From a virus (taxonomy: Duplodnaviria > Caudoviricetes): a stretch of DNA of 54,416 nt. Every line of letters starts with the position of its first letter. The first letter of the stretch is position 1. The notes below the pieces were generated by a model. It ran no database searches. It saw only the letters and a program-made list of their open reading frames with translations, and was not told where the DNA came from. Below are positions 11,758-14,982 of this stretch, piece after piece. The stretch spans positions 1 through 54,416 of IMG/VR virus record IMGVR_UViG_3300025080_000036; one strand, written 5' to 3'. A program made the translations under genes and the position numbers.

Positions 11758-13545
11758 TCAATGCACATCGTGCAAGAAGCCATGCCTGCCCACGCTTTTA
11801 CCCTTGGTGAAGTAATGAACGGTCGCCCCTCCTCTTTCGTAGTCCAAACTGGGTATCTCATTTTCGATGATGATGATCTGCCCATCCTTCTGGTTATCAA
11901 GCAGATATTGAAACAGGGCGGTTCTCATGCTTTCGGGCGCTTTATCGTCGACTCCCTGCTTCAAAGGCAGGGTTGGGGAATCCACCAAAAGTAGTCCAGG
12001 CGTGTATGTTCCATTCTCTGCGAGGTATCTCCTTATGACGAGTGCGAGTGCAGTGTTCAAAAATGCCCGATAACCTTTGCCACTGGTGGTCGCTTTCCTT
12101 CTGCCGTTAATGGCTACATCAAATGTCTCCAAAAGGAACTGCGCAGTGAGAAGCCCCTCGTATTTGCAATTCGTCAGGACTTCCATAAGGTATTTATCAA
12201 CTGTTTCCAAGAATTCACCGCCAAAGTAGTTTTTAGGCTTGAATTTCATCTCGGTCTCGTCCTCGGTTTGCATATCACGAAGTTCGGTAGTTCGCTCACT
12301 TGCAAATCGCTCGATAATATCCATTTCGTTCCGAAGTCGTATGACTGCGCGGTAGTCAGTCAGCATCTGCGTGAACTCTTGTGCTTTTGGCTTTAACCGA
12401 TTGTTGATCAATGTTTCCACATCAGACTTCTTAGCGGTCAAAGCCGCTATTTCCACCTCAATCTCCTTGCGCTCGCGGAGTATGTCCTGTTCCGCCTCGC
12501 TCAAGCCATCGAACTGCGACAGTATCCGGGCAAGTTCCGCTTGTGAAGCCTCGATATAGGATGCATGGCCGTGTTCAGGAATTTCCCCGTCGCAGAACGG
12601 GCATATGTCCAAATGCGGAACAGCGTCCAAATTTGACTCGCCATCCACGATGAAGCTAAGGCGCTTGATATCGGCAGTGTATTGACTGCGAAGCGACTGG
12701 TAGCGGTTGTACAGGAGATTACACTCTGCGAGTCGCTCCCTTACAGATAGAATCTCGCTCAAAAGCAGACGGCTCCGCTCGACCTCCGTTGAGATGCGCT
12801 CCTCGGTTTCGGCAAGGGCGTCAACAATGCCTTGAACCGTGACTTCGATGTCTATCGTTTCAATGGTGGCAAGGGTTTCATTTAATTTGTCTCTTTGCTC
12901 GGCTAAGTCCGACAGTTCTTTATTAATGTACTTTTCAACTGCCTTTTTGCGAGCCTCCTTAATTTTCTTTTCTTCCCGCTCATCGAATTCGGAAAAATCC
13001 TTGTCGGTTATAAGGAACAGGAACGACGACATGAATGCTGTGTTTTCCTGCGGCAACTTGGGCAGTAGAATAGAAGCTTCCTGTGACACGTCTTCTTCCT
13101 TGATGAGGAACATATGCACGAAAGTGCGCCACGTCAGCTTCTTGGTTTTGAAATTCTCGTTCTTTATAATCTGATGCTCTTCCTCAACGCCAATCAGCCT
13201 AAGCCATACCGAGCTGATAATAGGGTCGCCATTTTTGGCGTTGTATTTGCCGGACTCAATGTTCTCATCAGAACTTGAGACGGCTATTTTATTTTCTCCG
13301 ATTTTACGTTCAAGGGTAACCTGACCACTGCGAGTAACGACAACTATCTTCACAGTGGTATAGCCGGTGCTTTCGTCAAAAGGCGGGTTCGAACTCCCAA
13401 ACAGAAAATCCACGCACTTCAATATGCAAGTTTTGCCTGTGTCGGACAATCCGTACACAATATTTAACCCTTCGGTGAATTCCACCGTGGCATCCTTTTT
13501 TTCTTTGCCTGAAGCGGTAACCAGCTTTATGTAATAGTTAGCCAT
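11758..13545 (-). CDS. SMC/Rad50-like ABC ATPase of an ABC three-component (Lamassu-related) system
   Basis: GLSDTGKT Walker A, long coiled coils with central CPFC zinc hook, SGKGYRA, LLLVDSP Walker B, IIIEN. Confidence 0.82.
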   Translation of the reverse strand: MANYYIKLVTASGKEKKDATVEFTEGLNIVYGLSDTGKTCILKCVDFLFGSSNPPFDESTGYTTVKIVVVTRSGQVTLERKIGENKIAVSSSDENIESGKYNAKNGDPIISSVWLRLIGVEEEHQIIKNENFKTKKLTWRTFVHMFLIKEEDVSQEASILLPKLPQENTAFMSSFLFLITDKDFSEFDEREEKKIKEARKKAVEKYINKELSDLAEQRDKLNETLATIETIDIEVTVQGIVDALAETEERISTEVERSRLLLSEILSVRERLAECNLLYNRYQSLRSQYTADIKRLSFIVDGESNLDAVPHLDICPFCDGEIPEHGHASYIEASQAELARILSQFDGLSEAEQDILRERKEIEVEIAALTAKKSDVETLINNRLKPKAQEFTQMLTDYRAVIRLRNEMDIIERFASERTTELRDMQTEDETEMKFKPKNYFGGEFLETVDKYLMEVLTNCKYEGLLTAQFLLETFDVAINGRRKATTSGKGYRAFLNTALALVIRRYLAENGTYTPGLLLVDSPTLPLKQGVDDKAPESMRTALFQYLLDNQKDGQIIIIENEIPSLDYERGGATVHYFTKGKSVGRHGFLHDVH

Positions 13546-13549
13546 TCAG

Positions 13550-13999
13550 TCATCCCCTTTGTAAAGACGCAATCGAGAGCCTATTAATCAACGCGAGGAC
13601 GTCACGCTCTGATTTGGAGCCGATGAGTTCTTTTGTCGACCTCGCCGAAGCGCAATACTCGTCGGCGTAATCATTATCAAGCCGTGCACGGTAGGTTTTA
13701 CCGCTTTCACTAATACCATATCGAAATCCGTCACGCCGCTTGGAAACGGTGGTCAATCCGTCCAGTACAAGTAGTTTTATAGCTTTCTGCACCAGTTCGC
13801 GCCGTGCCGCAAACTCGCTGAAATTGAAGAAGTTATCTCCGTTCAGGTTTTCATCGGCGACTCCGAAGGAACGCCCATACACAGCGATGAAGTCGACGGC
13901 GGCAATCATATCGGCGGTCATCGTCCGCTTGTCATCCACCGAAAGCATAAGCAGGATGCGTAGAGATATTTCAAAAGAGGTATTAAACACGTTCTCCAT
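13550..13999 (-). CDS. ABC three-component system middle component (MC2-like), 149 aa
   Basis: Start ATG 13999 (TGATG overlap); FNTSFEISLRILLML...DFIAVY...RRELVQKAIKLL pattern; lies between the CTD protein and the ATPase. Confidence 0.72.
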   Translation of the reverse strand: MENVFNTSFEISLRILLMLSVDDKRTMTADMIAAVDFIAVYGRSFGVADENLNGDNFFNFSEFAARRELVQKAIKLLVLDGLTTVSKRRDGFRYGISESGKTYRARLDNDYADEYCASARSTKELIGSKSERDVLALINRLSIASLQRG

Positions 14000-14982
14000 C
14001 ACAGCATCACCCACCTTATCTTCCCGTCGTTTACGAGCATATGGCACACGCCCTTTTTCTCACTGTTACCTATCCAGTTCGGGATATTGCTCAGAAGCGA
14101 TTTGCTGACGGGTACCACAACAGCCTGTTTCAGCACCTCAATCAAGCGGGCGTAGCCGTGGTCAAAGTTTTGGTCACAGGTGGTGGACACGCCGTCGTAC
14201 ATATCCTCTTTCAGAATCCCAAACTGGTCGCCGCCTTCGTCAGCGAACACCTCTCTAACCGAACGTCGTATGCTCTCGGCGTTATAGTAGTTTTTCCGTT
14301 GTTCCTCAAAATTGCGCTGATACCTTGGATAGCTGGACAGCGTATCCCTCGATATGCTCACTTTTTTCTCGGCATCCGTGTAGGCGACGAAAAGTTCGGT
14401 GACATAGCCTTGCTCGTGCGGCTCGATATCAGCAGGCGGTATCAGCTTCGCAGGGAGTTTGATTATGCTGCCGCCGATGTGGATTTTCCCATCTTTTACA
14501 TAGACTGTCGCCAACGGGACTTGCGGCAACCGCACATTATCAAATTGAGGCACAAGTTCCTCGGCTATTTCAATGTTTGTCTTGGCTACGTTTTGCCTTG
14601 TGCCGTTGGCGCACTCAGTCAGCAAATCTGCAAAGATTTTGGCGCACTGGGCGGCGGCTTCATATTTTTTCGATACCTTGTAACCTTTACTTGTGAGAGC
14701 CGTCTGCAACCCACTGGTTGCATCATCCGACAAGTCGGACATATATGCCTCGAACTTAGCTTTATCCATATGGCCAACAACAAAGGCTGCATCTTTGCGT
14801 GGCAGTGGCTTCGAGCCATTATAAATCCTCGTGAGGTAATCGGCCTTCTTGTCCAGAAGGGCACATCGTTCATCAGCATCGTCCTCGATGATGTTGCCAA
14901 TCAACGACACGACAAGGTCGGATTGATATTTACCATCCCCACAAAAGGGATACAGCATCTGTGCGAATTCACTGAATATCAC
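13999..14982 (-). CDS. ABC three-component system first subunit: uncharacterised helical N-terminus + CTD6-like C-terminus
   Basis: Probable GTG start at 14982 after AGGGGG; C-terminus QRKNYYNAESIRR...KKGVCHMLVNDGKIRWV resembles recalled ABC-3C CTD6. Confidence 0.7.
   Translation of the reverse strand: MIFSEFAQMLYPFCGDGKYQSDLVVSLIGNIIEDDADERCALLDKKADYLTRIYNGSKPLPRKDAAFVVGHMDKAKFEAYMSDLSDDATSGLQTALTSKGYKVSKKYEAAAQCAKIFADLLTECANGTRQNVAKTNIEIAEELVPQFDNVRLPQVPLATVYVKDGKIHIGGSIIKLPAKLIPPADIEPHEQGYVTELFVAYTDAEKKVSISRDTLSSYPRYQRNFEEQRKNYYNAESIRRSVREVFADEGGDQFGILKEDMYDGVSTTCDQNFDHGYARLIEVLKQAVVVPVSKSLLSNIPNWIGNSEKKGVCHMLVNDGKIRWVML

Follow-up and report, generated by a model that had tools for sequence, protein, structure and literature searches.

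The subject of this report is a short Lamassu system in a gut phage and, in particular, the unnamed helical domain that heads its first subunit. The window, i.e. the whole stretch of DNA analysed, is the linear IMG/VR record IMGVR_UViG_3300025080_000036 with 54,416 bases and an estimated completeness of 72%. It is a fragment of a temperate gut phage resembling the Candidatus (Ca.) Heliusvirales phages. On its minus strand lmuA, lmuC and lmuB form a complete short Lamassu, or three-component ABC (ABC-3C), system with all three components intact. LmuA begins with an all-helical, acidic domain, here called NTD-A, which we take, with modest confidence, to be the non-enzymatic output domain of a phage-carried short Lamassu defence cassette. 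This type of LmuA is already catalogued in PADLOC and an effector-less short-Lamassu clade is known; the new elements are the N-terminal module and its distribution.

The three genes are packed tightly and run leftward out of a divergent control region:

13999–14982, minus strand: lmuA, 327 amino acids, GTG start, with unnamed N-terminal domain, linker and CTD6 (Pfam CTD6 2.3e-43; PADLOC LmuA PDLC03857 6.4e-104, nearly full length)
14599–14982, minus strand: NTD-A, residues 1–128 of LmuA, all-helical and acidic, of no known family or fold (AlphaFold2 (AF2), predicted local distance difference test (pLDDT) 92.4)
14458–14598, minus strand: low-confidence LmuA linker, residues 129–175 (pLDDT below 50 at 129–166 and 170–175; strands at 161–175)
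14002–14457, minus strand: LmuA C-terminal domain (CTD6) with the fold of solved LmuA C-terminal domains (VIA Z 10.4–12.2)
13550–13999, minus strand: lmuC (MC2), 149 amino acids (Pfam MC2 4.9e-43; PADLOC LmuC 2.1e-54)
11758–13545, minus strand: lmuB, 595 amino acids, short SMC-like ABC ATPase with CPFC zinc hook (PADLOC LmuB 2.6e-223, residues 1–594)

A Lamassu/ABC-3C system with a zinc-hook SMC-like ATPase had been predicted earlier for this DNA. This part of the observation holds, because the family matches, the LmuB motifs, the overlap of stop and start codons and the fold of the LmuA C-terminal domain all fit. LmuB contains a Walker A motif (GLSDTGKT, residue 32), the CPFC hook (residue 315) and a Walker B motif (LLLVDS, residue 518); at E ≤ 1e-3 its sequence matches none of the solved chains. 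The lmuC ATG overlaps the lmuA stop codon (TGATG), indicating translational coupling, and the GTG start of lmuA agrees with the MxFSEF start in 28 aligned homologues. Altogether 100 LmuA homologues were found, many of them full length, with full-length conservation down to 29% identity; the closest (P0002, P0003, P0005) are 76–87% identical. The CTD6 model superposes on eight solved LmuA entries (9uxi, 9nxx, 9ny1, 9hr5, 9uxh, 9ny5, 9uxl, 9hqu) with a root-mean-square deviation (rmsd) of 2.5–2.9 Å over 113–130 residues; the next unrelated chain in the VIA search reached Z 5.0, compared with 10.4–12.2 for these eight. The linker includes a short beta-hairpin segment which, according to the alignment, is found in some homologues only. 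An N-terminal effector of a recognised enzymatic class, which counts among the Lamassu characteristics, was not found, as residues 1–128 have no match in Pfam, NCBIfam or the PDB. Even so, this type is represented in PADLOC by a full-length LmuA profile.

Modelled alone with 28 homologues (AF2), residues 1–130 form nine helices. Foldseek searches of the PDB with this model gave nothing at E ≤ 1e-3 (the full LmuA model gave weak LmuA rows only), and the VIA comparison of all against representatives gave no chain at Z ≥ 5, the best having Z 4.4 with an rmsd of 4.5 Å over 75 aligned residues. The profile of the domain reached at best E 0.6 against PDB sequences; there was no usable match in the ESM Atlas and none in NCBIfam, and in Pfam at E ≤ 5 no family recurred among 30 copies, each weak match occurring in 1/30. 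According to BFVD the fold is common to just three uncharacterised gut Siphoviridae proteins (TM 0.76–0.88). Weak rows for helix-hairpin-helix glycosylases (VIA Z 2.8–4.0) are within noise. Among the titles and abstracts listed in literature searches, none describes NTD-A or its phage hotspot.

Conservation of the domain is almost entirely hydrophobic. Among 30 diverse copies only G56 and A65 are near-invariant, and among 84 diverse proteins G56 is the sole invariant position, with F3 and F77 nearly so; D87 is invariant within the CTD6 set only. Hence neither the 30 copies nor the 84 proteins contain a catalytic or other polar residue conserved family-wide. The domain is acidic in 28/30 copies (median isoelectric point (pI) 4.75; 4.92 for the copy in this LmuA), and a locally basic patch lies near the conserved motif, where each of the positions R52, K58, K63 and K76 is occupied by K or R in 57–63% of the copies. 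The original prediction had called the domain apparently non-catalytic, helical and possibly HTH-like. The first description is well founded and also agrees with the structure search, in which no catalytic effector fold was matched. The second is confirmed by the model. The third is not well founded: no helix-turn-helix (HTH) or other DNA-binding fold or family was among the Pfam, VIA and Foldseek matches, although an absent match does not exclude one.

For its distribution, an NTD-A profile built from the 30 copies was searched against 1.84 billion cluster representatives. It matched 1039 protein clusters at E ≤ 1e-3 and 643 at E ≤ 1e-10. In all 150 matches listed the domain begins within the first 54 residues, on proteins of 105–1508 amino acids. 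Among the 84 listed matches of at least 250 amino acids, 17 carry CTD6, 11 CTD11, 5 NACHT, 3 NB-ARC and 7 TPR_12. A second view came from 73 viral loci collected via the HTH gene that neighbours the cassette (see below) and read for their contents; related loci are cited by L numbers. Here the gene adjoining the divergent region often begins with a full NTD-A (hidden Markov model E 2.7e-23 to 7.3e-8). NTD-A heads a CTD11 protein adjoining a DUF2326 ABC ATPase (L172, L186), the partner of an AAA_13 ABC ATPase (L178, L180), the partner of a superfamily 1 (SF1) helicase of 910–920 amino acids (L170, L189) and a protein whose remainder is unrecognisable (L192). The proposed check, whether the same domain occurs at the same position in related prophages with other C-termini, thus comes out positive; proteins with CTD11 or HamA and partners of AAA_13 ATPases and SF1 helicases are examples. 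The HamA case (L188:3004–6990) is a Hachiman system in which NTD-A (7.3e-8, residues 4–130) is joined to HamA (Pfam 5.6e-28, residues 199–430) and followed by a DEAD/Helicase_C protein.

Conversely, members of the CTD6 family differ at their N-termini. These carry NTD-A, a distant NTD-A homologue (hhalign probability 95%, E 4e-8), a restriction-endonuclease-like domain (L048, L052), a second unnamed module with a ..PYLCGG.. hydrophobic stretch and a subsequent basic run, or nothing. N-terminal swapping within the CTD6 family means that the LmuA N-terminus behaves as an effector or output position. The YLCGG-type module, which has no Pfam match, replaces NTD-A in AAA_13, SF1-helicase, NACHT and Lamassu cassettes of the same slot:

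L175:3134–4009, L193:2983–4224, L182:4328–6985, L060–L063 and L145–L151: loci with the YLCGG-type module

Where LmuA is short and lacks an N-module, either NTD-A or the YLCGG-type module is encoded separately, in a gene upstream of it. In such split arrangements (L060, L062, L063, L067, L140, L145–L151) the upstream N-module gene ends with ..VNQYGDHPVHIDHVENLKL (or ..VQNGDNNINLTNNG..). This 'VNQYGD..HIDH' tail is mirrored at the start of the short CTD6 LmuA, and the matching tails suggest a non-covalent coupling of N-module and docking domain. NTD-A occurs once in the record, once in each of three genomes with related loci and once in each of 8/8 positive genomes of the sample described below. 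This amounts to a single copy in 12/12 genomes or records (one, G001, counted twice, so that 11 are distinct), some of them incomplete. A second copy that could serve as homotypic adaptor partner was accordingly not found in these 11, with the same limit of completeness.

The genomic position was analysed by tblastn of the window proteins on 153 loci located by means of a CTD6 motif; species-representative genomes supplied 73 and IMG/VR 80, and some contigs are in both sets. LmuA of the NTD-A type (class A) was present in 105 of these loci (47 genome, 58 viral). LmuC accompanies it in 41/42 and LmuB in 42/42 of the genome loci with enough downstream flank. Homologues of the phage early genes are divergent in 27/34 genome loci with at least 4 kb upstream and in 55/57 of their viral counterparts (of 58 loci); the seven genome loci without early-gene matches retain the HTH gene. 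In an even sample of 401 genomes from the phylum of one host genome, eight carry NTD-A: five with divergent phage early genes, two more with the HTH gene downstream on short contigs, and one on a contig too short to judge. Streptococcus phage Javan630 and Christensenellales phage NatCom_6392, the latter annotated as Ca. Heliusvirales, have LmuA homologues of 32–33% identity in the same place. The text of the Heliusvirales paper does not contain the terms repressor, lysogen, integrase or SMC.

In the relatives, the position between the early genes and the HTH gene is occupied by CTD6 Lamassu, CTD11 with DUF2326, AAA_13, HamA with helicase, SF1-helicase or NACHT cassettes or by an M78 peptidase-like gene. 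Because different defence systems fill the same position, the slot is a variable defence hotspot of one phage lineage rather than the prophage repressor slot that had been proposed. In L036 (3832–10975 of a Bifidobacterium thermophilum contig), one of these seven genome loci, Lamassu and HTH gene remain with only a sigma-like divergent gene. By eye, the flank contains open reading frames (ORFs) resembling an ABC transporter and an isochorismatase, and the locus looks like the domesticated remnant of a phage arm.

Pairwise similarity matrices were compared over 104 non-redundant loci (Spearman). NTD-A co-varies with LmuB (0.75) and LmuC (0.70), unlike the phage genes DUF2800 (0.05), DUF2815 (0.11), the orf157 family (0.00) and the divergent sigma-like ORF (0.07), the last of which shows 0.30–0.51 with the phage backbone. 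Since NTD-A tracks LmuB and LmuC and not the backbone genes, the cassette is cargo shuffled among phage backbones. The value of 0.07 likewise gives no support to the sigma-like neighbour as a partner of the N-domain. Co-variation of NTD-A with the HTH gene is weak (0.21).

This HTH gene lies just beyond the cassette:

11422–11643, minus strand: Cro/C1-type HTH gene, 73 amino acids, 115 nt downstream of lmuB (Pfam HTH_26 3.7e-19)
11684–11731, minus strand: promoter-like site TTGAAA-17-TATACT with perfect palindrome TACAAT-N7-ATTGTA before the HTH gene

The claim that no cI-type repressor is visible is not supported in view of this gene, a possible lysogeny repressor that lies immediately outside the operon described at the time. 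An HTH gene is found downstream on the same strand in 34/39 genome and 32/38 viral NTD-A loci with enough flank; its product has 65% mean column identity and an almost fixed recognition helix. In this window the palindrome overlaps the -35 element of the promoter-like site. Of 45 upstream stretches from relatives, most of them ending in LmuB coding sequence, none contains this palindrome; the HTH gene there mostly follows the sensor gene directly. Compared with these stretches, a promoter-like site and a palindrome belonging to the HTH gene are thus peculiar to this window. A predicted complex of the N-domain with the HTH protein scored 0.00, which speaks neither for nor against binding.

Upstream of lmuA, phased repeats had been predicted and are present:

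15009–15043, minus strand: four direct repeats in the lmuA leader, CGTAC, CGTAC, CGGAC and CGGAC on the lmuA sense strand, with a 10-nt period
15110–15138, minus strand: promoter-like site of the leftward operon, TTGACC-17-TAGAAT with TG (10/12 positions in a consensus scan; consensus match only)

The GT(C/A)CG cores are spaced exactly 10 bp apart, an arrangement matched in 0/100 shuffles, though the pattern was derived from the data. Across 2.36 Mb of the 153 loci, searched on both strands, CG[TG]AC repeated three times with a 10-nt period occurs 55 times, always on the lmuA sense strand and, in loci with full flanks, 58–76 nt ahead of the LmuA match. A generic detector (at least three 5-mers, 10-nt period, at most one mismatch each) was positive in 76/105 NTD-A loci compared with 99/3000 random windows (3.3%). 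The arrays are preceded by promoter-like hexamers and followed by the Shine-Dalgarno sequence. Compared with shuffled sequences, the fold of the leader RNA is not unusual (z -0.23), and Rfam contains no match to it.

The repeat core follows the N-domain subfamily and neither the sensor type nor the HTH recognition helix. CGGAC accompanies most LmuA-type N-domains. GGTAG or GATAG belongs to the 'TYKAYFNG' subfamily regardless of the sensor, be it LmuBC (L129), split LmuA (L067, L140), AAA_13 (L178) or SF1 helicase (L170, L189). CTD11-type cassettes have TGTACA or TGGACA, the distant-homologue class has TTGACC with an 11-nt period (by eye), and the YLCGG module has leader repeats of its own, of the AAGGTTAC type. 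The two restriction-endonuclease-type LmuA loci have no such repeats (n = 2, by eye). The HTH protein was rejected as reader of the repeats, one recognition helix accompanying CGGAC, GGATA, GGTAG, GATAG and CGGAG cores. Within the 54-kb record (72% complete) there is no second pair of cores, the array is confined to the lmuA leader and no such operators lie at the divergent early promoters; this single array argues against a control of the phage early promoters. The repeats are linked to the N-module gene and may reflect binding and autoregulation, though adjacency alone could explain the link.

What NTD-A does can be proposed from its position. By homology with the solved Lamassu complexes, LmuB and LmuC would hold LmuA via its C-terminal domain, and would let it go on meeting foreign DNA ends. 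NTD-A, being in the effector position, would then act by binding something after release or clustering. The same module serves at least five other sensor architectures plus STAND NTPases across related prophages. Several observations weigh against this proposal, to which we give slightly better than an even chance. The presumed defence role rests on family membership and on the company of the cassette. With one NTD-A copy per genome or record, a homotypic scheme of adaptor plus effector is left without a partner. A pure protein-binding effector does not explain the phased repeats before nearly every NTD-A gene. In the HamA fusions a nuclease effector is already present, so that NTD-A there is an addition and not the sole effector. 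Finally, NTD-A was found almost exclusively in the slot of one lineage, which agrees equally with a function tied to that lineage and with cargo shuffled within a closed pool.

Alternatively, the N-domain may bind the phased repeats of its own leader, as DNA or RNA, either as an autoregulator or, more boldly, as a sensor-activated transcription switch. The enrichment of repeats upstream of class-A loci, their uniform strand and distance, the dependence of the core on the N-domain subfamily, their lack in the two restriction-endonuclease-type loci and the basic character of the most conserved stretch (R52, K58, K63, K76) agree with this. However, the domain as a whole is acidic, no DNA- or RNA-binding fold stands out (best Z 4.4) and the leader RNA is ordinary. 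In addition, the leader adjoins the DNA of the domain, so that co-inheritance alone would couple core and subfamily, and the repeats of the YLCGG module indicate that such arrays may belong to the slot and be recognised by some other factor. A single array in the record would allow autoregulation at most. We regard binding to the leader as unlikely, if worth keeping in mind. Somewhat more doubtful is its extension, in which NTD-A is a new sequence-specific nucleic-acid-binding output: foreign or broken DNA would be sensed by LmuB and LmuC, or by the Hachiman, STAND and helicase sensors of the sister cassettes, and the released, oligomerised subunit would bind three to five helically phased repeats cooperatively, switching transcription in the prophage instead of killing the cell. 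In the case of LmuA a tetramer would meet the four repeats.

The output could also be aimed at the resident prophage, for instance at the conserved HTH protein, causing induction on DNA damage or superinfection or silencing of the cassette during the phage's own lytic growth. NTD-A was found almost only in this slot of one phage lineage, and the unusually conserved HTH protein follows the cassette in most loci, including the seven genome loci without recognisable early genes. On the other hand, HTH genes occur in the slot also without NTD-A (L202–L213, L176, L194), cassettes without a detected HTH gene exist (e.g. L115–L119), the two proteins co-vary weakly and the slot contents are ordinary defence families. 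Moreover, immunity repressors do not usually show one conserved recognition helix across many hosts, as is the case here. We therefore consider this target highly improbable. The original prediction of a transcriptional regulator that induces the prophage is not supported, given the acidic domain without a DNA-binding fold match, its co-variation with LmuB and LmuC instead of the backbone and an array restricted to the lmuA leader; nothing supports prophage induction by this cassette. A cryptic enzyme with a fold not yet described is, to our mind, a slightly poorer candidate still. NTD-A sits where Lamassu, STAND and ABC-3C proteins usually have enzymes and its unmatched fold leaves room for a novel activity, but no polar residue is conserved family-wide, the (near-)invariant positions being G56, A65, F3 and F77, with D87 only in the CTD6 set. 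Least credible is a functionless, decaying or effector-less Lamassu remnant. The description of a short-Lamassu clade that 'seemingly lost the effector domain' (PMC12663957) would suit a system lacking an enzymatic effector. Several points speak against decay: none of the three genes is broken, their motifs and translational coupling are preserved, homologues keep their full length at identities as low as 29%, the N-domain family comprises 1039 clusters, and where LmuA is genuinely short its N-module is encoded by a gene of its own upstream.

The surroundings of the cassette agree with the predicted head-to-head arrangement of a leftward operon and phage early genes, and the antirepressor foreseen is also encoded. 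Rightward, the operon is divergent from a sigma-like gene, DUF2800, DUF2815 and PolA, which are followed by the Ant antirepressor, a VirE-like gene and a helicase:

15520–16227, plus strand: first long rightward gene, sigma-70-like (NCBIfam sigma70-ECF 2.9e-5, under the family cut-off; phrog_13787, function unknown)
20597–21373, plus strand: antirepressor Ant (phrog_130, 1e-95)

The divergent region also contains an ORF of 62 amino acids (15206–15394, plus strand), whose AGGAGG ribosome-binding site is strong; Pfam, PHROG and tblastn of the 153 related loci gave no match to it. Leftward past lmuB lie, in order, the HTH gene, methyltransferase genes, a GHKL ATPase, an Mrr-helicase fusion and an OLD-type ATPase with a UvrD-like helicase. 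Two short ORFs with cytosine-methyltransferase-like motifs (10853–11252, minus strand), between the HTH gene and the intact Dcm gene (9845–10837), look, by eye, like what is left of a second, broken methyltransferase. Pfam matches indicate a Gabija-like pair at the left end of the record (236–3917, minus strand), in which an OLD-family ATPase/TOPRIM gene (2073–3917) overlaps a UvrD-like helicase gene (236–2080).

Lamassu is among the commonest bacterial defence families, and its activation mechanism was recently solved for nuclease effectors. The Lamassu branch described here is common in gut-phage genomes and has an unnamed helical module in the enzyme's stead. If NTD-A were named and its target known, the output of several systems, namely the Hachiman-, STAND- and helicase-based cassettes, could be explained together, and the 'effector-less' Lamassu clade of the literature would become clearer as well. 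The repeats, being conserved and specific to the subfamily, offer a direct handle for telling a protein-binding effector from a nucleic-acid-binding switch.

Two kinds of known proteins resemble NTD-A proteins in architecture. EAD and Death-like adaptors are small non-enzymatic helical modules that act through a second copy on a separate effector. NTD-A is likewise a small, all-helical N-terminal module on STAND and other NTPase-based systems, but it is present as a single copy per genome (12/12 genomes or records) and has no Pfam EAD or Death match. In STAND regulators of the AfsR/SARP type, an N-terminal DNA-binding domain binds phased direct repeats. Here, too, some proteins consist of a small N-domain, then NB-ARC or NACHT, then TPR, and phased direct repeats are found near a promoter. 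In contrast, NTD-A is acidic and has no match to a winged HTH or BTAD fold, and the repeats are located in the leader of the gene itself, on the downstream side of the promoter-like site.

With regard to the genomic position, Lamassu has been reported in prophage hotspots (bioRxiv 10.1101/2022.05.11.491447). The slot resembles the P2/P4 hotspots, and lambda rexAB beside cI, in its fixed lysogeny-side position with interchangeable defence cargo and conserved phage-gene flanks. It belongs to a different phage lineage than the P2/P4 hotspots, with replication modules of DUF2800, DUF2815, PolA or VirE, and its cargo has one of two unnamed N-terminal modules plus a phased-repeat leader. We know of no P2/P4 hotspot with cargo sharing common N-modules and such a leader.

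The closest relatives are the short (type II) Lamassu, DdmABC and other ABC-3C systems, including the solved LmuACB complexes from V. cholerae and Salmonella, which share the gene order lmuA, lmuC, lmuB and the fold of the LmuA C-terminal domain. Short Lamassu LmuB has been described with Walker A and hhhhD[S] Walker B motifs (PMC12663957); LmuB is likewise short here (595 amino acids) and has both, plus a CxxC hook, and LmuC is of the MC type. DdmA and DdmB are of the CTD7 and MC3 types (PMC11707656), whereas the subtypes here are CTD6 and MC2. At the N-terminus, a helical module stands instead of Cap4, Mrr, PDDEXK, Sir2, protease, lipase, HNH, SMEK or FMO. 'Clade O' of short Lamassu is described as having 'seemingly lost the effector domain' (Haudiquet et al., PNAS 2025, PMC12663957). 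As described, this clade likewise combines the lack of a recognisable effector with non-truncated LmuB and LmuC. Compared with that description, however, the N-terminus of the present LmuA is not an absence but a folded, widely conserved domain, and those relatives in which LmuA is truly short have a separate upstream module gene with matching 'VNQYGD..HIDH' tails.

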